This document shows, in pieces, positions 1 to 21,219 of a DNA stretch of 32,000 bases. Position 1 is the first letter of the stretch. Each line of letters opens with the position of its first letter. The DNA is from Candidatus Lokiarchaeum ossiferum (GTDB taxonomy: Archaea; Asgardarchaeota; Lokiarchaeia; Sigyniarchaeales; Promethearchaeaceae): the NCBI GenBank assembly GCA_025839675.1, contig CP104013.1, positions 300,001 to 332,000 on the forward strand, given 5' to 3'. A program made the translations under genes and the position numbers. Under the pieces are notes generated by a model that was not told the DNA's origin, ran no database searches, and was given only the letters and a program-made list of their open reading frames with translations.

Positions 1-356
1 TGTTGGCAAGAATACAATATCTAAATATTAATCTGAGTATTTAAAGGTTTTGATCATAAGACAACTAAATGTTAATTAAATTACTAAAATCCCGGATAAC
101 AGTTTTAAAAATTAAATAATGAGAAATATTTGTTTAATTAAAAATATCTCAACCGATTTTCATTGAGTAATAAATCGGAAATTTCAGATTCCCAATAGAA
201 GCACTTTAATCGAATAGAACCAATCGATGGAAAAAATTCTATACTAAAAATTTTATTTTAAAATAAATTTAGCAAATGATTAGGGTTTAATAAAATTTGA
301 TTAAAAGTAGATGAATTTTACAAGTACTCAGTTAAAATTGACCTTTCATTAAAATC

Positions 357-1070
357 TTAATACTTAGCGAGAAATTCTAATATTTCAGGAAGTTCGTGGA
401 TAACCATAATATTGTCAAAAGAATATTTATGGTTTTGATCCAACAAAACAGGAATCATCCCAATTCTCTTAGCCATTTCAATGTCCATTTTCAAATCATC
501 ACCTACATGAATAATCTTTTTTGGATTCGTTGTTTGCATTAATTCCACTGCAGTTTGATAAACCTCTATATCATCTTTATTGTACCCATAATCTTGAGAG
601 TGAATAAAAATATCAAAAAAGTCAAAAATCCCGAGTTCTTTTAGTTTGGAATGAACTTTCATACGATCTCCATTAGTTAATAAACCAATCTTCAAATTTT
701 TTCTCTTAATTTGTTCAAGAGTTTCTTTACAGCCAGAATTCAAACTAAAATAATTAAAGAAGTTCTCTTGGAATTCTTCACTAATGATTTTGCTTGATCC
801 TTCTCGTTTCAGTCCTATAGTATCAAGCATAATTCCATTAAGGTTATTTCTTTCATCATTTGTTAAATTCATATAACTTCTCCCATAAGCATATTGAAGT
901 CGATTTATTTCTTCCATTTGTTTTTGTAAACCCTTATTTATTAGAGTATTGCTAAGAACCACGTCAGAACCTAAACGATTTAATATTCTGGACCATACCT
1001 TATAATAAGCACGAACTGAATCGATTAGTGTTCCAAAGAAATCGAAATATATCCCAATAATTTTGTCCAT
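357..1070 (-). CDS. HAD-superfamily hydrolase (haloacid-dehalogenase-like subtype)
   Basis: The ORF is 357..1085, but its listed start is GTG. The ATG at 1070 gives MDKIIGIYFDFFGTL, placing HAD motif I right at the N-terminus. Other motifs are LLTNG (motif II region) and HVGDDLKMDIEMAKRIGM (motif IV). Motif I reads D-F-F, not DxD. Confidence 0.8.
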   Translation of the reverse strand: MDKIIGIYFDFFGTLIDSVRAYYKVWSRILNRLGSDVVLSNTLINKGLQKQMEEINRLQYAYGRSYMNLTNDERNNLNGIMLDTIGLKREGSSKIISEEFQENFFNYFSLNSGCKETLEQIKRKNLKIGLLTNGDRMKVHSKLKELGIFDFFDIFIHSQDYGYNKDDIEVYQTAVELMQTTNPKKIIHVGDDLKMDIEMAKRIGMIPVLLDQNHKYSFDNIMVIHELPEILEFLAKY

Positions 1071-1246
1071 TATTAAATTTGGCACCTTTCCAACATTTCA
1101 AGTCCATATCAAATTAAATCTTATCTGCTTCAAAAATGAATAACAACTTGCTAATAAACAACATGAATACATTTTTTTTCTAATTCTTTGATAATTTATT
1201 CATATCAGAACTTACGAAGAAAACCAATAGAAGAAAATACTTGGCG

Positions 1247-1801
1247 TTATTTAATTTGTTCGTAATATTTTAATCTATTTAACATTAAATTATAAATTGG
1301 ATCATCAGATAATGCATTCGTTGCCAAATTTGCAAAAAACTTACTTTTTTTAAGAAGATAATTATAGTTATCCATTCCATCTACATAATTTTTAGCGGAA
1401 TAAATAAAATAACTTAAATTATCGTAGATATCTGCAGCTTTGACTATTAATGCGCTTTTCCCGTGATTTAGACAACGTTTAAACATATCTTGATATCTCT
1501 CTTCTAAATTTGCAATTTCGACATTAAAAGAATTGATTGCAACAAGTTCTGCAATTTCATTACCAAATTTCTCAGCAATATCGCTTTTAGTAATTGATGA
1601 ATCCTCAATTAAATCATGCAATATACCTGCAATTATTACAAATTTCGGATAATTGAATCTCAATATTGTCATTCCTACACGTATACTATGCAAAATTACT
1701 GGCTTAGGATTGTTTCCAGAAGAAAGAATATTCTTGACTAGAAAGTTAATTGCGTTCTCAATTTCTTTATCTGAAGAATGATCGTGGAAAATGGAATACA
1801 T
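1247..1801 (-). CDS. Stand-alone HD-domain phosphohydrolase of the RelA/SpoT (Mesh1/SAH-like) hydrolase type
   Basis: 184 aa. Motifs HSIRVG, AGILHDLIEDS, KFGNEIAELV and ALIVKAADIYDNL match the H..., HD..ED and KxADxxxN pattern of the (p)ppGpp-hydrolase HD_4 family. There is no synthetase domain. Confidence 0.75.
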   Translation of the reverse strand: MYSIFHDHSSDKEIENAINFLVKNILSSGNNPKPVILHSIRVGMTILRFNYPKFVIIAGILHDLIEDSSITKSDIAEKFGNEIAELVAINSFNVEIANLEERYQDMFKRCLNHGKSALIVKAADIYDNLSYFIYSAKNYVDGMDNYNYLLKKSKFFANLATNALSDDPIYNLMLNRLKYYEQIK

Positions 1802-1966
1802 ACTTTTAATAAAATTTTAATCTAAATAAGCTTAATTAGATATCAAGATTTTATTTGTATCAGAAAATGTTCATCCTTATTTCTTTTGGAGTATCTAGTT
1901 TCTTGGTTGTAGATGGTTAATGGTTTACCGTTTATTGAACCGCAAATATGATTTATAGAAAAAAAT

Positions 1967-2812
1967 TTATAATTTATTAAGAAACTTATCAAAGTATTCA
2001 TAGAATTCTTCTTTATTCCCTAAATGCACATTGTGGTCGGGAAGTGACATTTCATAAGCAACACAATTTGAAAGTAAAGATTGCATTTTTTGATAATCTT
2101 CATCAGGCACCGCCTCATGACTACTAGATCTTATAATGATGACTGGACACTTAATTTTTGGTAATATATGGTACCAATTCTGTTCATATGCAATATTTGC
2201 TGTCATCGCTTGAGTACTGAACATCATTTGATATCCCTCTATTGTCTCCACTAAGCTATTCATGAAATATTGATAACCCAGGTCTGAATCAGTTTCCTTT
2301 TTGATTAATTCCATCGCTTCATTTAATGTAGGAAATGGCAAGGGCCAATTATTTGTAACTGGGTCTTTTAGATTGATTTGTTCAAGAGGTGTTCTATTCT
2401 GTTTAAGAGGTCCAGCAGGGGATTTATCAAGTAAACCAAGTGCTTTGACGTAATTTGGGTAGAGATCAGTAAAATAACTTGCAATACGCCCCCCCATTGA
2501 ATGACCCACTAATATAATTGACTTTATTTCTAAGTAATTCAGCAATTTGTAAAGATCTTCAGCCATTTCTTCTGCTGTATACTTTGAAATGGGTTTACTG
2601 CTAAGTCCATGCCCTCTTTGATCTGGTGCAATAATTCGATATTTATTTCCATATTTTTGGATAAAATCGGCCCAAACTTCTGCTCGACCCCATCTACCAT
2701 GAAGACACACAATCACAGGTTTTTCTGATTTTGTATCAAAATAAAACAAATCAATATCCTTCAATTTAACTAATTCTCTATAAATCTTTACTTTTTTCAT
2801 ATGATCGCTCAC
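1967..2812 (-). CDS. Alpha/beta-fold hydrolase
   Basis: 281 aa with VCLHG (oxyanion region), the GHSMGG nucleophile elbow, and C-terminal D...H (PDHNVH). The listed start is GTG; an ATG four codons in (2800) is an alternative. Confidence 0.85.
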   Translation of the reverse strand: MSDHMKKVKIYRELVKLKDIDLFYFDTKSEKPVIVCLHGRWGRAEVWADFIQKYGNKYRIIAPDQRGHGLSSKPISKYTAEEMAEDLYKLLNYLEIKSIILVGHSMGGRIASYFTDLYPNYVKALGLLDKSPAGPLKQNRTPLEQINLKDPVTNNWPLPFPTLNEAMELIKKETDSDLGYQYFMNSLVETIEGYQMMFSTQAMTANIAYEQNWYHILPKIKCPVIIIRSSSHEAVPDEDYQKMQSLLSNCVAYEMSLPDHNVHLGNKEEFYEYFDKFLNKL

Positions 2813-3078: not shown

Positions 3079-4731
3079 TCATATCGAATTTATTTCTTCA
3101 TCATTTTCTATCTCAGGAAAGAATTTGTGGATTCCAATCCGAAATTTTTCGCGAAGAATTTCCAGTTTATCAGGTTCAGCAGTTAAGTTGACATTTCTTA
3201 TATATGACAAGCATTCATCATCTAAAATAAATTTCCTTAACAAAATCAATCGATTCCGTAAATTTCGATTATGAGTTGCTACCAAAATACTAAAAAGAAA
3301 TTTGTCCTCACTTGATAACACCACCAACGAAATCCCTTCAAATTCTATAGATTTTAATGAACCTTTTATAAAAATTGTTTCAGCTAAGGAGTTAATTGCA
3401 TGAATTAATGCACCAACTAATTCTTTTGGTGATCCATGTTGTATATCAAACTTTCCTTTTGAGTAAAGCATTATACCTGAAGGTGAAACGATAAAAATCG
3501 CATTAGCTTTCCCCATTTTAAGCAAAGTATGAGGTACTATTAGAATGAGCAGAAAAGATATTATTAAAATACTGATAGAAATCCAGATTGAAATGTATAT
3601 TTCAAATCTTTGATCAAAAAATCCACCAATTAATGATCCTATGAAATCAAATATAAAACTTATCCCAAAAGTTAATCCAGAATAAAGAAATCGCAGTCTG
3701 GGAGGGGTAATATCAGCTATTTTTAGAACTCCAAATTCTAAGATCAAGTAATAACCAGTTACCTCAAAAAGAAGACTTATTACTGAGAACGGTAAATAAA
3801 TTCCAATAAACATTGAGATTAAAGTAGATATGATCGCCATTAAGAATATTAAATATCTTCCCCCTTTATCAGAGAGCCATCCAAATATAAAAGCACAGGA
3901 ACCTGAAATTATAAAACTAAGAGCTCGCAATGAACAAGTTGAATCAATACGAAGATGGGCCAAGATTAACGAATGGGCAATTCCATTTCCTATAAAGAAG
4001 ATAGAGACTGCAGAAATTGTAAAGATCACATTTTTATCAAATATGGGAATTATTTTTTCTCGGATTTTGGGACTTAAATTATGGATTGATTTTGGCTCCT
4101 TCCATCTAAAAAAACGCCAGAGAATTACCATACCAAATATTGCTATTCCTATCCAAACTAAGATTAAAATGTTAAGATTTATCTCAGGTTTAAGGTTGAA
4201 GCTATAATTTATCATAGTAATTATCGATGTAAAAAATAACGCTAAGCCAATGCTCAATCCAATGGTTTTCCCACGATCTTCTGGAAATAGTGAGCGACTT
4301 ATCAATAATGTTAGATAAGCGTATGATCCATAGCTCAAAAAGCTAAAAATGGGGAGATAGATGAAAAACCAAATAATTTTACTCAAATTCGGTGAAACGT
4401 GAGTCAATAAATATGATATTGATAAAATTAAAATTGTTACTGAAAAAAAAAAGAGAATAATTTTTTTATTATTTGATTTCAGATTAAAATTTTTAAAAAA
4501 CAAGAAAATCCAGATGATACAAAACAATATTGCCGAAAAGAGCATTATAATAAAGAAATTTTGAAAGAATATTGTCCTTTCATCAACATTAAAACTAATA
4601 AATGCGAGATTTAATAATATGGTCCCTCCAATTCCAGCATCAATCAAAAAACATAGAAACGCAATTAATAGGGTATAACTCACTTCTTTTTGTTTGAAAC
4701 TAAATTTTTCATTATCAATTGAATGTTGCAC
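3079..4731 (-). CDS. MFS-type 12-TM membrane protein fused to a C-terminal soluble alpha/beta (longin/roadblock-like) domain
   Basis: 550 aa. I count 6+6 hydrophobic helices with a basic central loop. MFS motif-A-like FGWLSDKGGRY lies between TM8 and TM9, with PEDRGKTIG after TM4 and TPPRLRFLYSG after TM10. The C-terminal ~145 aa (approx. 3082..3520) is soluble: AIFIVSPSGIMLYSKG...ELVGALIHAINSLAETIF...LKSIEFEGISLVVLSSEDKFLFSILV. Start codon is GTG. Confidence 0.7.
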   Translation of the reverse strand: MQHSIDNEKFSFKQKEVSYTLLIAFLCFLIDAGIGGTILLNLAFISFNVDERTIFFQNFFIIMLFSAILFCIIWIFLFFKNFNLKSNNKKIILFFFSVTILILSISYLLTHVSPNLSKIIWFFIYLPIFSFLSYGSYAYLTLLISRSLFPEDRGKTIGLSIGLALFFTSIITMINYSFNLKPEINLNILILVWIGIAIFGMVILWRFFRWKEPKSIHNLSPKIREKIIPIFDKNVIFTISAVSIFFIGNGIAHSLILAHLRIDSTCSLRALSFIISGSCAFIFGWLSDKGGRYLIFLMAIISTLISMFIGIYLPFSVISLLFEVTGYYLILEFGVLKIADITPPRLRFLYSGLTFGISFIFDFIGSLIGGFFDQRFEIYISIWISISILIISFLLILIVPHTLLKMGKANAIFIVSPSGIMLYSKGKFDIQHGSPKELVGALIHAINSLAETIFIKGSLKSIEFEGISLVVLSSEDKFLFSILVATHNRNLRNRLILLRKFILDDECLSYIRNVNLTAEPDKLEILREKFRIGIHKFFPEIENDEEINSI

Positions 4732-4787
4732 TAGTTAATTTTGTAGTATGAACTTATTAGTCTATGGTAACTATCTCACATTAATGT

Positions 4788-5007
4788 GAATAACCTAAAA
4801 AAAAAGTTTTAATCGATTAAGATGTGATTTTTTCTAGTAAATCAAAGGTTAATAAAGCCACACTTATTAATTGTTTAAAATTCACTGTATCCACCAATTC
4901 AAGATAATAAGATGTGGCATCAAGAATCCTTCCCATATTATACCAGAATATGTGTGTATCTATGTTCTAAAGTTCCTCCCATGTCTAAACATGTATAGTT
5001 TTTTTAT
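4788..5007 (-). pseudogene. Decayed internal fragment of a paralog of the 6595..7725 gene
   Basis: Manual alignment pairs 4788..5007 with 6752..6970, with most positions identical. The minus-strand translation is KKLYMFRHGRNFRT*IHT[1-nt frameshift]FWYNMGRILDATSYYLELVDTVNFKQLISVALLTFDLLEKITS*SIKTFF. The intact gene reads KKPYMFGHGRNFRSLKPPFFWYNVGTVLDATSYYPKLVNTLSFKQLLSVALLSFDSKGEITPKSIKTFF. The fragment has two in-frame stops and one frameshift. Confidence 0.75.
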
Positions 5008-5217
5008 TGCGTACAATGACTCTAAATCTTTAACCACTAAAATTTATTGATAATAATTGAAGAAAATTCTTTTTTTTTGTACTTAATAATTAAAATGGGA
5101 TAAATTCAATCTTAAGAAGCAAAATAACAGAGCATCTCGAATAATAACTTTATAATATACTAAAAAAAAATTTTTGTTAATACTTTAAAAATGATAAAAA
5201 CCAAATAAAATCGCTTA

Positions 5218-6330
5218 TTATGGTATAAATGAAAAATTCTTTTGTACATATTGGGATGCGGGTTCAAACATTGATATATGTTCCATTTCTTCATAGAATT
5301 CCGAAAATTTGCTATGAAAATCCTTAGTAAATTGAATTAAGGCATTTTTCAAAGATTTTGAGGCTTGAGTCGCTTCTAACATAAATACTAGCGGATGTTT
5401 ATGATCCCGATATAGAAGAATAACTCGATCTGCTAAGTGGATTTCTGATATTTCTCCCGTTAGAAGAATAGATTGAAAGACTTGATCAATTCCAATAATT
5501 AAACTACTAAGTAAGGTTTGTTGATCTGCTTCATTCATTGTTTTTGGAGTTTTTATTGTTTGTTCTGAAATTGATTCGAATTTATTTTTACTTTCCCAAT
5601 TATATGAGAAAATAGGTATTCCATTCTTTTCTTTAATTACATTCAGTTGATACACTTTAAAAGGTAATATAAAGGCTAATTTTGGCTCTTTTATCATTGC
5701 TATTGTCATAATTAATACTCCAATACCGAATGGTAACATATAAATTCCTGGCACCACCAAAGTGATGCCTGTAAGTATCAATATTGTTGTAATTACTCCC
5801 AAAATAAAACCTCCAATCAGATTTATTAATGTTATTGATTTTAAATACAACGGTGCAACGATATAGAGTTTGAAACAATAATAAACAAGTAATCCACTCA
5901 TAAACAAATTCAACGCAGTTTGTGTAAATCGTAATACACCTACCATTTGAAAGCTCGGATCTCCATTATCAAATGGTAAGGGTGCAATATTTCCTTCAAG
6001 AGATGAACTATAAAGAACAAGTGTCCCAAGAATTGATACCAAAATCAATTTTATTGGATCTAACCTTATTCTAATTAGAGAATCGACAAAAATTGTGATT
6101 ACTACTCCCGTAGGAACTAAAACCCAGATACTTATCCGATACAACCAAATACTTTCAAATATATAAGAAAATGCTTGAAATAATACAAATAATGATAAAA
6201 AGAACCATCCAATTGCCATTATCAAATAATGTCTAAATTTTTTGTTTTTAAAATTGATTAGAGCTAAAATAAATGAAGTACAAACTGGAACTAATGCTGA
6301 TAAGCAAAAAATTGCTTCAAGGGTAAACAT
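5218..6330 (-). CDS. 7-TM membrane protein with a C-terminal soluble alpha/beta (longin/roadblock-like) domain
   Basis: 370 aa with an ATG start. Seven hydrophobic helices span residues ~5-213. A soluble domain follows (approx. 5221..5686): YQLNVIKEKNGIPIFSYNWES...QQTLLSSLIIGIDQVFQSILLTGEISEIHLADRVILLYRDHKHPLVFMLEA...LKNALIQFTKDFHSKF. Confidence 0.65.
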   Translation of the reverse strand: MFTLEAIFCLSALVPVCTSFILALINFKNKKFRHYLIMAIGWFFLSLFVLFQAFSYIFESIWLYRISIWVLVPTGVVITIFVDSLIRIRLDPIKLILVSILGTLVLYSSSLEGNIAPLPFDNGDPSFQMVGVLRFTQTALNLFMSGLLVYYCFKLYIVAPLYLKSITLINLIGGFILGVITTILILTGITLVVPGIYMLPFGIGVLIMTIAMIKEPKLAFILPFKVYQLNVIKEKNGIPIFSYNWESKNKFESISEQTIKTPKTMNEADQQTLLSSLIIGIDQVFQSILLTGEISEIHLADRVILLYRDHKHPLVFMLEATQASKSLKNALIQFTKDFHSKFSEFYEEMEHISMFEPASQYVQKNFSFIP

Positions 6331-6594: not shown

Positions 6595-7725
6595 TTATTT
6601 TTTCTTAGTGGTGTCTTTTGATCCTGCGAATTGGTTTCCATCTAATTTTAAGACTTCGTTTATTAAAGAAACATTAGTATCGACTGCTCTTTTGCAAATG
6701 CTGGACAGATAATAAGTAACCCATGGGGAAAAATTCTTTTTCTGACCAAAGGAATAACCTTTAAAAAAAGTTTTAATCGATTTAGGGGTGATTTCTCCTT
6801 TTGAATCAAAAGATAATAAGGCTACACTTAGTAATTGTTTAAAACTCAAGGTATTAACTAATTTGGGATAGTAAGATGTGGCATCAAGGACCGTTCCAAC
6901 ATTATACCAGAAAAAGGGGGGCTTTAATGACCTGAAGTTTCTTCCATGTCCAAACATATATGGTTTTTTCGTAGATCGATCATTCCAGCAATTAAGTAAA
7001 GTTTTTCCGCACTTTATCAGATTTGCAGGCCTTTTGGCTAAAGGTATCTTATAATAACCTCGTAAAACATCAATTATTAACATTGGACAAACTTCATTTT
7101 TTCTTCCAGGTCCTCGAAATTGAGATTTCAATCCAGGTAAACATTTCCATCCAATGCCGTTCTCAGTATCTTCAACTAAATCGTTAATACGTGATATTGC
7201 GGATTTAACCGCTGATTTTTGTTCATATCCAAATAGAAGCATCAATGTAGTTATAAGATGATGATCACACAAGATACTTTCCCACATATTTAATTTTTCT
7301 TTTGTTTTCCGGTTATATACTTCCCCATACCAGAGAAATTGCCCTGTATCCTCGTCAGTATGCTCCAATAATGAGTCTAAAATATTTTTGATTCGAATAT
7401 CATCTTCTACCTTTATCCCCCAATTATGAAGCAATAATAGTTGATTAGGAATATAGCGAGGATCATTATGACCTGAAACCTTAAAATCTTTCCAACGGGG
7501 TAAATTTGATAATATAGCTTCTACTAAAGGATCCTTGAGCATTTTAGCTTTAGCATTTTGGACTGTGATATTTTTCTCTGGAAGTTCTAAAAGATCTGTG
7601 AGAGTTTTATAAACAGTGAAGGATTCTCCAGATCGTAACAATCTTTGGCGATTATCTTGTGGTATTAATTTTAACCAACTTGGTTTCACAGATAGTTTTT
7701 CTAGAATTTCGGGAGAATCTTCCAT
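6595..7725 (-). CDS. Conserved-looking hypothetical protein (possibly an alpha/alpha-toroid repeat fold; tentative)
   Basis: The long ORF is 6595..7842, but its first 39 codons are low-complexity (MSFCKCNNHNISS...) and overlap the divergent gene. The ATG at 7725 (MEDSPEILEKL...) is the more plausible start. D-x-G-x-x-W-like elements recur (EDTGQFLW, ENGIGW). I recognise no firm family. The partial paralog remnant at 4788..5007 shows amino-acid-level conservation, which supports this as a real gene. Confidence 0.6.
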   Translation of the reverse strand: MEDSPEILEKLSVKPSWLKLIPQDNRQRLLRSGESFTVYKTLTDLLELPEKNITVQNAKAKMLKDPLVEAILSNLPRWKDFKVSGHNDPRYIPNQLLLLHNWGIKVEDDIRIKNILDSLLEHTDEDTGQFLWYGEVYNRKTKEKLNMWESILCDHHLITTLMLLFGYEQKSAVKSAISRINDLVEDTENGIGWKCLPGLKSQFRGPGRKNEVCPMLIIDVLRGYYKIPLAKRPANLIKCGKTLLNCWNDRSTKKPYMFGHGRNFRSLKPPFFWYNVGTVLDATSYYPKLVNTLSFKQLLSVALLSFDSKGEITPKSIKTFFKGYSFGQKKNFSPWVTYYLSSICKRAVDTNVSLINEVLKLDGNQFAGSKDTTKKK

Positions 7726-7842
7726 ATTGTGAATTTTAATAACATTAATGCATTTTTTAATTTTCCCAACAAAACAGAAGATACAGTTTTTAAAGTAAAT
7801 GGTGCTTGAAATATTATGGTTATTACATTTACAAAAACTCAA

Positions 7843-9093
7843 ATGGAGTCTATTACAGATTGGTATGATCTTCTAATTGTAGGAGCTGGAACTGCCGGTC
7901 TTACCACAGCTATCATTGCAGCTCGTCAAAATCTACGGGTTTTGGTTTTAGAGAAAGGCTCAAAAGTTGGACCTCTCCCTCGTGGTGAAAGTATGGCCTA
8001 TTTTCCGCTGGAAGATGAGATATTAGGGAAAGGGTTCATTGAAAGCATAATGACTGTTGGCCCTTCGTTTCGCCGATATCATAGCCCGATGGATAAAAAA
8101 CAAACGTTAGTAGATGTACACACCCCCTATCGATTTTTTCCATGGCATCCTTTTATAGAACGATTTGAGCAACGGGCTATAGCAGCCGGAGCATCAATCC
8201 TAACTGGGGTGGAAGTTCTCGCTCCAATCATATCCCCATCAGGAATATGTATTGGGGTTCAATGCAAAAATGCTCAAGAAGAAAGTCACGAATATTTTGC
8301 TTTATCCACTATTGGGGCAGATGGTCATTCTTCTGTAATGGGGCAATCTTTTGGAGTTGATTACTCAACAATAAATTGTCCGATTGTTAAATTTCTTGGT
8401 GATAATGCTCAAGTTGATATTTCTAAAACTCCAAATCCTCAATTCTTCATGCTTTCCCCAGGACAATTGGAAATTGCACCGCACTTTCCTCCAGCGGCTG
8501 CCTACTATTTTCCGATTGGAGGCAATAAAATTGAAGCTGGCCTGATGTTACGCATGGGTCAATTATGCAAAATGAAGAACATTAAACAACCTTCCAATGA
8601 AGAAATTATGAAGGTATGGGGTTTTTTAAAAGCCCAATATCCTGGATTTTCTTCAGTTTTTACAGATATTAAAGTTGAATATGAAGGTCTCACTCAGATG
8701 CCGAACGCACGTATGGTGGAACATTTTATTCTCGGTAAGGGTGGAGCTGTTTTAGTGGGAGATAGTGCAGGTTTTGTAGATGCCAATGGATCTTCCGGCC
8801 TATATTATGGAATGAAAATGGCCGCTGAATGGGTAGGCATCTTATCAGTCCCTATTAATCAAGTCCAAGAAACAGACACAAATTTCTCACAGAAAATCAA
8901 TGATATTTGGAAGAATGCAAACAGAGAAGAATATGAAAAAAATTTTCGAAAGACAGATGTTTGCAAACATATAAAAACATCTTATAAATTGATTGGTTTG
9001 TCAGAAACGTTAATCTTCCGCTGGATTAAAACTGCAAAAGGTCTCAATAATATCTGGGGGCTTTTTTCGTTTATGATTAAGTCGGCAAGTTGA
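7843..9093 (+). CDS. FAD-dependent oxidoreductase, geranylgeranyl-reductase family
   Basis: MESITDWYDLLIVGAGTAGLTTAIIAARQNLRVLVLEKG is a GxGxxG Rossmann motif followed by an acidic residue. GADGHSSVMG and LVGDSAGFVDANGSSGLYYGM match the GGR/FixC-type signature. The ORF opens at 7816, but the ATG at 7843 gives the canonical N-terminus. Confidence 0.8.
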   Translation: MESITDWYDLLIVGAGTAGLTTAIIAARQNLRVLVLEKGSKVGPLPRGESMAYFPLEDEILGKGFIESIMTVGPSFRRYHSPMDKKQTLVDVHTPYRFFPWHPFIERFEQRAIAAGASILTGVEVLAPIISPSGICIGVQCKNAQEESHEYFALSTIGADGHSSVMGQSFGVDYSTINCPIVKFLGDNAQVDISKTPNPQFFMLSPGQLEIAPHFPPAAAYYFPIGGNKIEAGLMLRMGQLCKMKNIKQPSNEEIMKVWGFLKAQYPGFSSVFTDIKVEYEGLTQMPNARMVEHFILGKGGAVLVGDSAGFVDANGSSGLYYGMKMAAEWVGILSVPINQVQETDTNFSQKINDIWKNANREEYEKNFRKTDVCKHIKTSYKLIGLSETLIFRWIKTAKGLNNIWGLFSFMIKSAS

Positions 9094-9210: not shown

Positions 9211-10065
9211 TCAATCTTCTTTGGTCATAAGAGTTTGATTCGTTTTATCTCGAATAAATAATAAACATGCAATCAAACCTCCAAGGATACTGATCCCCAC
9301 ATAAATCCAATAAAGAGGTTGAGCTGAAGCGGGTTGATCGTCATAAAACATATAGAATATCACAAAGGCCGCATTGAAGTTCCCATGCAACAGAATCATG
9401 ATTAAGATGTTTCCCTTTGCTTTTTGATAAATGTAGGAGTATATCAGCGAAGTGAACATTGTCATTAAGATAAATCCCAGATATGGTGTAATGTTGTGCG
9501 AATCCCAAAGCATGAACCAGAGAGGTGTGTGCCAAATTCCCCAGATTGCACCAATAATAAGGCTAGTTGTGATAGGAGAATATTTTTTTAACAGTTGGCC
9601 TTGTAAATACCCACGCCACCCGATTTCTTCTTGACCTCCCCCTAAAACTGAAACGAAGACTATATAGGGAATATACAACAAATATGGAATAAACCAAGGA
9701 TCACTCGGTAATGGGCTCGGAGGGAGGGATAATCCGAAAATCCATCCAATTAAATGAGATAAACCATTGATCAGGAGAGGTAAAATGAAGATAATACTTA
9801 AAAATAACCCCCATCGGTTAATTCCCTTTCTTGAAAAACATTTTTTTAGATGTTCTTTAAATGATTTGTTTTCACTCCGTAAAGCCATAAATGATCCAAA
9901 AGCCGGAGCAAAAGCTCCGATAATAAGAGCAATGAAATAAATTGCATTTGACAATTCTTCAGAACCTAATGAAATAATCCCGAAATATTCTAACACGGAA
10001 GGAATCCACAAAATCCATGAAAATAGAAATGTAGAAGCTAAATAAGTGAGTATGTTTCGACTCAT
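9211..10065 (-). CDS. CPBP-family (CAAX/Abi) intramembrane glutamic metalloprotease
   Basis: 284 aa, polytopic. Motifs are GGGQEEIGWRGYLQ (EExxxR), WGIWHTP (FxxxH-like) and LLHGNFN (the third His motif). Confidence 0.85.
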   Translation of the reverse strand: MSRNILTYLASTFLFSWILWIPSVLEYFGIISLGSEELSNAIYFIALIIGAFAPAFGSFMALRSENKSFKEHLKKCFSRKGINRWGLFLSIIFILPLLINGLSHLIGWIFGLSLPPSPLPSDPWFIPYLLYIPYIVFVSVLGGGQEEIGWRGYLQGQLLKKYSPITTSLIIGAIWGIWHTPLWFMLWDSHNITPYLGFILMTMFTSLIYSYIYQKAKGNILIMILLHGNFNAAFVIFYMFYDDQPASAQPLYWIYVGISILGGLIACLLFIRDKTNQTLMTKED

Positions 10066-19400: not shown

Positions 19401-20456
19401 TTAACATTTTTTTACAATTGAGTTGTACACTTTTTCAATGTGTTTTGTTTGTTCCTCAAGTGAAAAAACACTTTTTGCAAAATCATGACCTGGAATTGAG
19501 AAAATATTAAAACTTGGATTGATTAGCTCAATTTCATTTACCTTTAAATTTTCATCTTTTCCAATTAAGTCCAATCTCATATAATGAAAAGGATATTCCT
19601 GTTCAACTATTGAAATTATTTTATCAATAATTTCTCGTTCTTTACTACTAATTTTATATTTTTCTAAAATAGCACCATTATAATAATCAACGATTTTAAT
19701 ATTTTCATCAGAAGGCATGAAATTTCTTCTTGATAATGTGATTTCTTTATCAATAATCGCTATTTTTATTTCACCGTATTTTAAAAAATCATATTCAAAT
19801 TTTTGAACGATTATTCTTTGAGAATTGATAATTTTTTGATAAGTTGAAGCATGTTTTTCAAAGGTATTATGATTATAACTTAAATAATATTGTTCTAATT
19901 CTTTTAACGACAGTTTTCCATCTAAAATAAGGATTCCTTTAGCCCTTTCTGAAATCAAAGGTTTTGCAATATAAATTTCTTTATCATTGTTTAATTGAAT
20001 TAATTGATCTAAAGTTTCAATATTTGAAGTTGGAATAACTGGAACACCAAGTTTAGATAGATGAATCAAATATTCTTTGGAAGCATTTTGAATAATGGTT
20101 TCCACAGGATTCATAAATTTTGAATTAGGAAAATTTTTTCTTAAATAATCAATTAAATTGAAAAATTCTTCTGTTTGTTCAGATAAACCGTATGCTATGT
20201 TCTTAGATTCTATTTCTTTTCCAAAAACTCCAAAATAAAATAAATCTATTTCATCAAAAGGGACATTAATTTCTTTTTTAGATTTATAATCTAAAGCAAT
20301 TAAATGATTTGAATTTTGATTTCTTCTACAATCAATTACATATGAATTAACTCCTTTTGATTTAAAAAATTCTAAATAAGGAGTAGCTTCGTCTGTAAAT
20401 TGATATTCCTTTGTGTTCAAAGGATTCAAATATTCCGCAATTATACCGATTTTCAT
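19401..20456 (-). CDS. ATP-grasp-fold ligase (RimK/GshB-like; substrate unknown)
   Basis: The ORF opens at a TTG (20480). The ATG at 20456 (MKIGIIAEY...) follows GAGGAAG and lies 10 nt after the racemase stop. The pre-ATP-grasp and ATP-grasp layout is: NASKEYLIHLSKLGVPVIPTS, IYIAKPLISERAKGILIL, IIVQKFEYDFLKYGEIKIAII, HYMRLDLIGKDENLKVNEIELINPSF. Confidence 0.65.
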   Translation of the reverse strand: MKIGIIAEYLNPLNTKEYQFTDEATPYLEFFKSKGVNSYVIDCRRNQNSNHLIALDYKSKKEINVPFDEIDLFYFGVFGKEIESKNIAYGLSEQTEEFFNLIDYLRKNFPNSKFMNPVETIIQNASKEYLIHLSKLGVPVIPTSNIETLDQLIQLNNDKEIYIAKPLISERAKGILILDGKLSLKELEQYYLSYNHNTFEKHASTYQKIINSQRIIVQKFEYDFLKYGEIKIAIIDKEITLSRRNFMPSDENIKIVDYYNGAILEKYKISSKEREIIDKIISIVEQEYPFHYMRLDLIGKDENLKVNEIELINPSFNIFSIPGHDFAKSVFSLEEQTKHIEKVYNSIVKKC

Positions 20457-20466
20457 TTTTCTTCCT

Positions 20467-21219
20467 CTATACTTCTGCAATTCCTTCCTCAGAAACAGAA
20501 TTAATTATAATATTTTCATTTGATTCAAATAAGGCTCTTTCAACTGCAGCTTTTGCAATAATCTCTGAAGGATTGATGAGAATATACGGTACTTTTTTTG
20601 GATCTAAAAGCATTGAAATCTCTGTGCACCCACAAATAATTAATTCAGCACCTGATTTTGTTAAATTATTTCCTGCCTTTTTTAGAAGTTTTCTTGGATA
20701 TTTCTTATATTTAGATTTAATTCCCATCCTCCCATAAATTGATTCCATAACTAATAGTTCTTGATCTTCTTGATTTGGGATAATTGTTTTTATTCCTTCT
20801 TTTCTTAATTCTTCTTCATAAACTTTGCTTTTTATTGTTCCAGTTGTTGCAAGCAAACCTACTTTTTTAACATCAGGATAATTTTGAGAAATAAAATTAA
20901 CTGTTTCTTGAATCATATTTAAAATAGGAATTTTTACACTTGATTGAACTTTATCAATAAAAAAATGTGCAGTATTACAAGGTATTAAAATAAAATCAGA
21001 CCCTATTTGTTCGAGAACTTTTGCTGTTTTAATCATTTCGGGTATAGGATTTTTTCCCCCATATAAAATTGCCTTAGTTCTATCTGGTATTTTTGGGTTA
21101 CTATAAATTATTGTTTGAATATGGTCTTGATCTTTTTTAGCCGGAGTTAGTCAAATTATTTGTTTATAAAGTTCATTAGTTGCTTCCGGGCCCATTCCAC
21201 CTAATATTCCAATTTTCAT
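20467..21219 (-). pseudogene. Asp/Glu-racemase family gene (aspartate-racemase-like) interrupted by an in-frame TGA at codon 23
   Basis: From the ATG at 21219 it reads MKIGILGGMGPEATNELYKQII-[TGA 21151..21153]-LTPAKKDQDHIQTIIYSNPKIPDRTKAIL...MIKTAKVLEQIGSDFILIPCNTAHFF...LIICGCTEISMLL. That is one frame of 250 codons with both catalytic Cys motifs. The ORF track reports only the part after the stop (20467..21036). Confidence 0.85.

Follow-up and report, generated by a model that had tools for sequence, protein, structure and literature searches.

In a stretch of 32,000 nucleotides of Candidatus Lokiarchaeum ossiferum (contig CP104013.1, positions 300,001 to 332,000; from here on, the window), a gene on the minus strand encodes a protein of 370 residues in which seven transmembrane (7TM) helices precede a domain that is predicted to be cytoplasmic and to adopt a longin-type fold. 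A second gene 486 bp downstream, on the same strand, encodes a protein that resembles transporters in the major facilitator superfamily (MFS), with a C-terminal domain that profile comparison identifies as homologous to the first. We tentatively favour the reading that the 7TM-longin protein is a longin platform embedded in the membrane, where it would recruit small GTPases or regulate them. The features on which the argument leans are these:

5218..6330, minus strand: gene for the 370-residue 7TM-longin protein, a complete open reading frame (ORF) with an ATG start and its stop codon at 5218-5220.
5689..6330, minus strand: seven-helix membrane domain (residues 1-214) with its N-terminus predicted outside, from the AlphaFold2 helices and the positive-inside rule.
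6049..6084, minus strand: conserved motif D-x3-R-E-x2-D-P-x-K (residues 83-94), predicted cytoplasmic, at the inner end of helix 3 and in the next loop, from an alignment of 109 sequences.
5656..5688, minus strand: juxtamembrane motif EPKLAFILPFK (residues 215-225), which connects helix 7 with the first strand and is better conserved than any other part of the protein.
5221..5655, minus strand: predicted cytoplasmic longin-type domain (residues 226-370), from AlphaFold2 and Foldseek, with the conserved C-terminal motif FSFIP at its end.
5533..5595, minus strand: lineage-specific insertion (residues 246-266) between strand 2 and helix 1 of the longin-type domain, present in Lokiarchaeum-like orthologues only.
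3079..4731, minus strand: gene for the MFS-like transporter, 550 residues with about 12 transmembrane segments and a predicted C-terminal longin-type domain.
3106..3525, minus strand: longin-type domain of the MFS-like protein (residues ~403-542), homologous by profile to that of the 7TM protein.

The AlphaFold2 model of the 370-residue protein, built on 13 homologues, has a mean predicted local distance difference test (pLDDT) of 79.8 and a predicted TM-score (pTM) of 0.68. It contains seven long helices (residues 4-30, 33-58, 61-86, 92-109, 132-158, 161-187 and 198-214), and the outer loop that joins helices 4 and 5 includes a beta-hairpin (residues 115-129). Lysines and arginines number 10-11 in the predicted cytoplasmic loops of this protein against a single one in the outer loops, and across 109 full-length relatives they amount to 2.3-2.8 per inner loop and 0.0-0.8 per outer loop. 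These charges point to a topology with the N-terminus outside and the C-terminus inside, so that the C-terminal domain would lie in the cytoplasm. The N-terminus is only 3 residues long, leaving the protein without any extracellular domain. Within the membrane half almost the only conserved features are two motifs, both on the cytoplasmic side: the one at the end of helix 3, where D83 is kept in 90% and K94 in 84% of the relatives, and a second one, A-P-x2-L-K, between helices 5 and 6 (P160 in 96%, K164 in 82%).

After the juxtamembrane motif, in which L222, P223 and F224 are invariant or nearly so among the relatives, the model places strands at residues 226-233 and 239-244, a helix at 267-289, strands at 296-298, 303-308 and 314-320, and helices at 325-345 and 352-365. 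The resulting order (strand-strand-helix-strand-strand-strand-helix-helix, with five strands and no soluble N-terminal helix) is, in this predicted structure, that of a longin. The roadblock/LC7 order, in turn, runs helix-strand-strand-helix-strand-strand-strand, with the N-terminal helix packed on the sheet. Such an MglB-like arrangement was considered for the tail and rejected, as nothing but helix 7 and a 5-residue turn leads up to strand 1, and strand 5 is succeeded by two helices. It is by this order of secondary-structure elements that longins and roadblocks are told apart (PMC10933270). When the full-length model was compared with the PDB by Foldseek, its tail matched the sigma3 chain of AP-1 (9ddt_B, TMt 0.70), AP-2 sigma (0.58-0.60), the TRAPP subunits Bet5/Trs23 (2j3t_C and 3cue_C, 0.50-0.51), Mon1-Ccz1 (5ldd_E, 0.50) and Fuzzy; the tail thus superposes on solved longins at a TM-score of about 0.5 or more, with modest E-values. 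Altogether, a longin-type fold of the tail is well supported by the models. The insertion at residues 246-266, carried by this protein and its 55% identical orthologue, is a gap in all other relatives, and pLDDT stays below 50 over residues 249-292.

Sequence comparison alone does not lead to the same place. The 370-residue protein has no match in Pfam or NCBIfam, and searches of Pfam, NCBIfam and PDB sequences, for which both single sequences and 10- and 104-member profiles served as queries, returned nothing above threshold. The one Pfam family that recurs below threshold on the tail is Fuz_longin_1, in 2 of 10 and in 4 of 104 relatives (best E 9.6e-4), and Intu_longin_1 appears in one relative; both are longin domains of Rab exchange factors. 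None of the curated longin families (Fuz_longin_1, Intu_longin_1, Sybindin, Clat_adaptor_s and others) reached its gathering threshold, all the Pfam matches lying far below. An hhalign comparison of the domain profile with human AP2S1 and the YKT6 longin, which carries little weight, was not significant.

Residues 22-327 of the MFS-type neighbour match Pfam MFS_1 below the gathering score (E 1.2e-5; 24.8 bits, where 33.4 are required), the database annotation gives PF07690 for the entries P0013 and P0014, and hydropathy resolves 11 clear membrane segments plus one likely. The C-terminal extension of the ORF is about 145 residues long, and homologues of the protein are P0014, P0162 and P0163. 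BLASTP of the two tails against each other gave nothing significant (E 0.87). A hidden Markov model (HMM) made from the tails of the 7TM family alone, on the other hand, matched residues 412-517 of the MFS ORF with 24.8 bits (E 5e-8), its only other significant match among the 73 ORFs of the window, and scored 30.5 bits against an MFS relative that is 54% identical and lies on another contig. The alignment of the two tails spans the whole domain at about 19% identity, and both end in a related motif, F-x-x-x-x-x-S-F-I-P(-E) in the 7TM tail and F-x-x-x-x-K-F-F-P-E (F....KFFPEIE) in the MFS tail. This similarity is much above chance and, on the profile evidence, marks the two tails as homologous. 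The AlphaFold2 model of the MFS tail repeats the order of the 7TM tail (strand-strand-helix-strand-strand-strand-helix-helix-helix) with one extra short helix near the C-terminus. Its best 50 Foldseek matches are all longins or roadblocks, led by a chain of the TRAPP core (7b6d_E, E 2e-4) and including Fuzzy, Mon1-Ccz1, AP sigma and mu chains (AP-3 and AP-4 mu among them), COP zeta, Ykt6, SRX, LAMTOR and MglB. The roadblock structures (LAMTOR4/5, MglB) rank lower, aligning over a core of about 90 residues only or with a root-mean-square deviation (rmsd) of about 9-13 Å, and the roadblock resemblance is one at the superfamily level only.

The observation made in an earlier, sequence-only reading of this DNA is confirmed, and the interpretation given there holds in part. 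Its proposal of seven helices followed by a cytosolic domain of about 155 residues agrees with the modelled helices and with the loop charges of the protein and its 109 relatives, helix count and charges together putting the domain in the cytosol, and the pattern of strand, long helix, strands and helix that it described in the tail recurs in the modelled secondary structure. The similar domain it saw on an MFS gene about 500 bp downstream on the same strand is confirmed by the HMM where BLASTP fails, so that two different membrane scaffolds, a 7TM bundle and a 12-segment MFS-like transporter, do stand side by side with homologous tails that are predicted to be cytoplasmic; a structural kinship with longin and roadblock folds, whose absence would have counted against that reading, was likewise found for both tails.

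The deposited call for the MFS-like protein, P0013 (408 residues), uses an internal start codon, and the ORF extends 142 codons further upstream; since MFS_1 already matches from residue 22 of the long ORF onwards, the P0013 model is probably truncated at its N-terminus. A relative on another contig (L017 3889..5718, plus strand, GCA_030588345.1) was called as two genes of 247 and 237 residues with a small ORF on the opposite strand between them, which suggests a frameshift, an assembly error or a pseudogene. The adjacency of 7TM-longin and MFS-longin genes is not conserved on L017, the one other MFS-longin contig inspected.

Beyond the window, the 7TM-longin proteins make up a large family. 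The domain profile, searched against 1.84 billion representative proteins clustered at 50% identity, matched 1736 of them at E<=1e-3; stricter limits of 1e-10 and 1e-30 left 566 and 233. Among the best 150 of the 1736 representatives, nearly all are 355-365 residues long and carry the domain at the extreme C-terminus, the shorter ones looking like fragments. The family thus comprises at least 233 clusters and has a tightly conserved length of about 360 residues. The protein of the window shares 97% identity with a Candidatus Lokiarchaeum ossiferum protein annotated as hypothetical, and its alignments with homologues start at residue 1. All 16 loci taken from species-representative genomes, and all the named homologues, belong to Asgard archaea, in the lineages Promethearchaeota/Lokiarchaeia, Helarchaeota and Hodarchaeota, and they include the cultured Promethearchaeum syntrophicum MK-D1. 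Multiple copies occur, with at least 4 in one Helarchaeota metagenome-assembled genome (MAG), 3 in tandem in MK-D1 and 2 in tandem in each of two Promethearchaeum MAGs.

The two halves of these proteins have diverged to very different extents. Mean pairwise identity is 21.6% over residues 1-211 and 39.9% over the cytoplasmic part, and column entropy is highest for the outer loops (2.99 bits) and the helices (2.86), lower for the inner loops (2.36) and the longin core (2.01), and lowest for the juxtamembrane PKLAFILPFK (1.59); the most conserved segments of the family are all cytoplasmic. Such an asymmetry fits the pattern expected for a conserved output placed on a diversifying input.

The domain is not confined to these two scaffolds. 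A domain profile that includes the MFS tails was run against 951 ORFs, those of the window together with those of 23 other loci, and gave significant matches only to the 7TM family, the MFS fusions, one stand-alone protein and one tetratricopeptide-repeat (TPR) protein, plus a few weak ones. The stand-alone protein (148 residues, L019 6071..6517, minus strand, E 4e-10) is of the longin type, and its gene abuts, in convergent orientation, the 3' end of a 7TM-longin gene (5001..6074, plus strand). On the same contig, 7643..8641 (minus strand) encodes a different protein, which has seven hydrophobic segments and matches the domain weakly (E 3.6e-3) and whose membrane part has no detectable relation to the 7TM domain of the family; three genes carrying the domain hence fall within the 3.6 kb of L019 5001..8641. 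The TPR protein (654 residues, L007 13846..15807) is from MK-D1 and has a partial match at its C-terminus, covering about one third of the profile (E 6.6e-6); its gene lies 3.5 kb beyond the three tandem 7TM-longin paralogues of the MK-D1 chromosome (L007 6771..10371, plus strand). A profile of the N-terminal 7TM part, run against the fetched loci, matched family members only. A domain that occurs alone and on TPR, MFS and 7TM scaffolds behaves as a mobile module, and its genes tend to cluster, the 7TM-longin/MFS-longin pair of the window being one instance. This clustering of paralogues is consistent with heterodimeric platforms.

With seven helices, an outside N-terminus, an inside C-terminus and a variable membrane or outer part set against a conserved cytoplasmic output module, the protein is built like the bacterial 7TMR-DISM receptors and like the G-protein-coupled receptors (GPCRs). 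The former are bacterial 7TM receptors which, as Anantharaman and Aravind reportedly described in 2003, carry diverse intracellular signalling modules. They usually have a large extracellular domain of the DISMED type, absent here, and an enzymatic output, and a longin output is not known for them. Pfam 7TMR-DISM_7TM appears below threshold in 4 of 104 relatives (best E 2.6e-3) and HisKA_7TM in 1 of 104 (4.9e-4), neither of them in the protein of the window. Two of its features have counterparts in GPCRs, namely the conserved acidic/basic motif where helix 3 ends on the inner side and the beta-hairpin of outer loop 2, between helices 4 and 5; both resemblances are analogies. To act on heterotrimeric G proteins, GPCRs use their own helices, whereas the present family would use a fused platform instead. 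Foldseek matches of the membrane half in the PDB are weak, to microbial rhodopsins and GPCRs (E ~1e-2, TM-score 0.3-0.5), and reflect a generic similarity among seven-helix bundles. Membership in the GPCRs was considered and set aside, given that there is no match to a Pfam 7tm family and that the Foldseek matches have E 0.02-0.1, TM-score 0.3-0.46 and rmsd 6-13 Å. A microbial rhodopsin, which would bind retinal through a lysine in the middle of helix 7, was likewise rejected: the first lysine of this helix (residues 198-214) is K214, where it reaches the cytoplasm, and no lysine in that helix is conserved across the 109 relatives, the rhodopsin structure 8rss giving only a weak match to the membrane half (E 1e-2, TMt 0.48).

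For the tail, the closest known systems are the eukaryotic longins, namely TRAPP Bet5/Trs23 (TRAPPC1/C4), Mon1-Ccz1, Fuzzy-Inturned (CPLANE), the N-terminal domains of AP sigma and mu, and COP zeta, which have the same predicted fold and are the top structural matches of both tails. Their platforms work as dimers, a feature that the clustered Asgard paralogues fit. The tail has no sequence-level membership in any of these families, and the eukaryotic proteins are soluble and reach membranes through lipids, lipidated partners or GTPases, whereas the Asgard domain is covalently part of a polytopic membrane protein. Membrane-anchored longins are also seen in the longin SNAREs (Ykt6, VAMP7, Sec22b) and the plant phytolongins, which hold a longin at the cytoplasmic side of the membrane (PMC2779197). 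In these the longin is N-terminal, a single anchor or lipid is C-terminal, and a SNARE motif, absent in phytolongins, lies between them; the 7TM and MFS fusions have the reversed order, a bundle of 7 or 12 helices as anchor and no coiled coil. A further parallel comes from the lysosome, where SLC38A9 is a transporter that acts as a receptor and is coupled to roadblock/longin platforms and Rag GTPases (SLC38A9-Ragulator-Rag). By analogy, the MFS-longin protein would also join a polytopic transporter to a platform of the longin/roadblock type on the cytoplasmic face. In the lysosomal system the coupling is non-covalent, through the N-terminal tail of the transporter, and Ragulator is a separate, lipid-anchored roadblock complex; the MFS-longin protein is a covalent fusion.

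Within Asgard archaea themselves, soluble longin and roadblock proteins come from the same organisms and the same superfamily and show the same lineage-specific expansion and promiscuous domain shuffling (bioRxiv 10.1101/2020.10.19.343400; PMC10933270). The expansion is considerable: the first Loki genome has 41 longin-like domains, and the asCOGs of the roadblock/longin kind number 130 (PMC4917890; bioRxiv 10.1101/2020.10.19.343400). The Asgard longin architectures described are stand-alone domains or fusions to GTPases, TRAPPC3, DENN and two-component domains (bioRxiv 10.1101/2020.10.19.343400; PMC10933270), and our literature search found no description of a longin fused to a 7TM or MFS scaffold, a listing in the supplementary asCOG tables being possible. 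When the sequence-only reading spoke of a common, undescribed output, it was right that the domain is common and modular; as to undescribed, its kind is the longin fold, whose Asgard expansion had already been reported (PMC10933270; bioRxiv 10.1101/2020.10.19.343400). What had gone undescribed, so far as our search shows, is the sequence family, for which Pfam and NCBIfam have no model, and its fusion to integral membrane scaffolds, while the longin output fold and the generic membrane scaffolds are known. A search with the MFS-type tail for other architectures returned fragments of the same MFS family only.

If the tail acts as a membrane-tethered docking platform, it would probably do so as a homodimer, or as a heterodimer with a paralogous longin domain, in the manner of the eukaryotic longin platforms (TRAPP Bet5-Trs23, Mon1-Ccz1, Fuzzy-Inturned, FLCN-FNIP). 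The platform could recruit a soluble, non-lipidated Asgard small GTPase to the membrane or switch its nucleotide state. The variable membrane half might sense an external or membrane-borne cue, or might just set the location of the platform; the cue read by the MFS fusion would be the flux of its substrate. The motifs of the inner loops and the juxtamembrane PKLAFILPFK are likely elements for coupling the membrane domain to the platform. We infer the sensor and signalling roles, as the sequence-only reading did. A tail conserved better than its membrane half, unrelated scaffolds, a free-standing paralogue and clustered paralogues fit a conserved cytoplasmic partner and heterodimerisation. Asgard genomes encode about a hundred small GTPases, which have no lipid anchors, and dozens of longin and roadblock proteins. 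In a bolder form of the proposal, which we find rather doubtful, Asgard archaea would have polytopic receptors and transporter-receptors hard-wired to longin GTPase platforms, and the 7TM-longins would be the missing recruiters, exchange factors or GTPase-activating proteins for those ~100 non-prenylated GTPases. In the well-studied cases (TRAPP, Mon1-Ccz1, Fuzzy-Inturned, FLCN-FNIP, GATOR1), GTPase-regulating longins are dimers that dock the GTPase on a helix/sheet face (PMC10933270), dimers of longins and roadblocks being GTPase platforms (Levine 2013, cited in PMC10933270). Which proteins natively regulate the Arf GTPases of Asgard archaea has been described as unknown (PMC11914678).

Several observations weigh against a GTPase platform. 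The longin fold also serves roles that involve no GTPase, such as SNARE regulation, coat cores and, in related folds, the PAS/GAF-like binding of ligands. The assignment to the longins rests on predicted structures, with Foldseek E-values of 1e-2 to 2e-4 and, for the MFS tail, a model of low confidence (pLDDT 59.8), and no sequence profile connects the domain to a curated longin family or a solved structure. No ligand pocket was identified in the 7TM bundle, and the poor conservation of the membrane half suits a plain anchor as well as a diversified sensor. Genomic context adds to these points. The 32-kb window encodes no GTPase, nor any roadblock or trafficking gene, and our neighbour analysis (all-versus-all ORF clustering of 17 loci, a P-loop motif scan, Pfam on the candidates and precomputed Pfam on five more contigs) found no neighbour family conserved across 22 distinct loci beyond the synteny of close relatives. 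Ras/Arf-type GTPase genes lie near family members in 5 of the 22 loci. GTPases account for 109 of the 5381 genes of Lokiarchaeum, or about 2% (PMC4917890), and with about 250 neighbour genes some five would be expected by chance, as many as the loci observed. One of the five loci comes from JGI metagenome 3300037245 (L018) and holds the closest orthologue from another population, the 55% identical one (866..1984), with an Arf/Ras/Roc-type GTPase gene (180..761, plus strand) 104 bp upstream on the same strand; this single case speaks in favour of a GTPase link, and its GTPase would be a good candidate for a partner. The soluble longin and roadblock genes of MK-D1 likewise show no operon linkage, and GTPase and platform genes are rarely found in operons (PMC10933270). 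Absence of such linkage is neither for nor against a GTPase partner.

Two other accounts of the tail have to be weighed. According to one, which we regard as unlikely, it is a regulatory or dimerisation module working without any GTPase, which controls its own membrane protein by binding a metabolite or by dimerising; the 7TM protein would then be a channel or transporter and the MFS protein an allosterically controlled transporter. In its favour, one scaffold of the domain is a transporter (MFS_1, residues 22-327), and yet the domain is also found alone and on a soluble TPR protein, a better fit to an interaction module. Conservation of the inner loops and of the juxtamembrane motif suggests that tail and membrane domain are tightly coupled, but more than 100 divergent members keep the tail far better than the membrane part, which suggests a conserved external partner and not a co-evolution of the tail with its own membrane domain. 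The lack of a conserved GTPase neighbour agrees with this account, and so does the place of longins within a broad PAS/GAF-like superfamily, many members of which have non-trafficking roles (PMC4917890); the nearest structural matches, however, are longins of GTPase platforms and coats, not PAS or GAF domains.

According to the other account, quite unlikely in our view, the protein is an anchor or cargo adaptor for machinery of the coat, tether or SNARE kind, in which the 7TM bundle is a stable anchor and the longin nucleates a complex, for instance for the protrusions and vesicles of Lokiarchaeia. Longin-type nucleators do exist at membranes (AP sigma and mu, COP zeta and delta, the SRX domain of SR-alpha, the longin SNAREs), and the top Foldseek match of the tail is a clathrin adaptor sigma chain, with COP zeta, AP-3 and AP-4 mu, SRX and Ykt6 also among the matches; no coat, SNARE or ESCRT genes, though, were seen in the neighbourhoods examined. 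That the transmembrane helices and outer loops are barely conserved would be natural for an anchor, but seven helices, a fixed length of about 360 residues and a conserved outer beta-hairpin exceed what an anchor needs. The large paralogous expansion of the family would suit an adaptor as well, against which no SNARE or coiled-coil partners have been reported in Loki genomes (PMC4917890). Finally, that the tails share no module and resemble each other by composition only, as might be argued from an AT-rich genome (~30% G+C across the window) with proteins rich in Ile, Lys and Phe, from the failed BLASTP and from the lack of Pfam, NCBIfam or PDB sequence matches above threshold, is extremely improbable and effectively refuted, since a profile free of MFS sequences finds both MFS-type tails and nothing else in the 73 ORFs of the window, the inclusive profile is selective over 951 ORFs, two independent AlphaFold2 models agree in the order of secondary structure and in their longin matches, and hundreds of divergent homologues keep the domain.

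Under the GTPase-platform reading, the 7TM-longin family would be a concrete and testable candidate for a membrane recruiter or regulator of Asgard small GTPases, and the set of candidates is widened by the relatives that are joined to a transporter or a TPR protein or stand by themselves. Experiments are feasible, as there are members in the cultured MK-D1 and in, or very near, the cultured Lokiarchaeum ossiferum. Were the GTPase link true, it would bear on a pre-eukaryotic origin of receptor-to-GTPase signalling and of membrane identity. In the bolder form of the proposal, the family would be a prokaryotic counterpart of the logic in which G proteins are switched by 7TM receptors, membrane sensing would have been coupled to small-GTPase switching before eukaryogenesis, and the MFS-longin protein would be an analogue, in one polypeptide, of SLC38A9-Ragulator-Rag nutrient sensing. 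Without that link, these proteins would still be a large, uncharacterised group of Asgard membrane proteins deserving of a database model.

The spacer of 486 bp between the two longin-fusion genes holds one more feature, which belongs to their context and is not a functional part:

4787..5010, minus strand: decayed fragment of a paralogue of the 415-residue gene at 6595..7842.

The fragment matches the 415-residue product by tblastn at 69% identity over residues 311-364 and 290-305 (E 3e-19) and carries a frameshift and an in-frame stop. The intact gene (6595..7842, minus strand) lies directly upstream of the 7TM-longin gene, giving the order 415-residue gene, 7TM-longin, decayed 415-type fragment, MFS-longin, an order that may go back to an ancient local duplication of two genes as one block. 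The 415-residue ORF has no Pfam or NCBIfam match, its true start is probably a Met at about residue 40 and not the listed TTG, and when considered as a partner its product showed no homologue in any other fetched locus. Rfam and tRNA scans of the window gave no RNA genes. Besides this protein, the neighbours encoded in the window include an oxidoreductase dependent on flavin adenine dinucleotide (FAD), an Rce1-like intramembrane protease, an M19 dipeptidase, hydrolases, a P-type ATPase, rubrerythrin, VIT1 and an aldehyde dehydrogenase. The gene for the Rce1-like protease (CAAX protease / CPBP family, 9211..10065, minus strand, E 8e-16) is 3 kb from the 7TM-longin gene; the family is widespread in prokaryotes, and in eukaryotes CAAX processing is tied to the lipidation of GTPases. 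Leucine-rich-repeat (LRR) proteins are encoded within a few kb of 7TM-longin genes in 4 of the 16 genome loci and on one further contig (L004, L006, L009, L012, L020), and as LRR proteins abound in these genomes the proximity may be due to chance. Elsewhere in the window, an ORF of 189 residues (20467..21036, minus strand) covers positions 58-210 of the 211-position Asp/Glu racemase profile and overlaps the start of an ORF of 359 residues with no family match (19401..20480, minus strand), an arrangement (19401..21036) that may reflect gene-boundary problems or a fusion or fission event.

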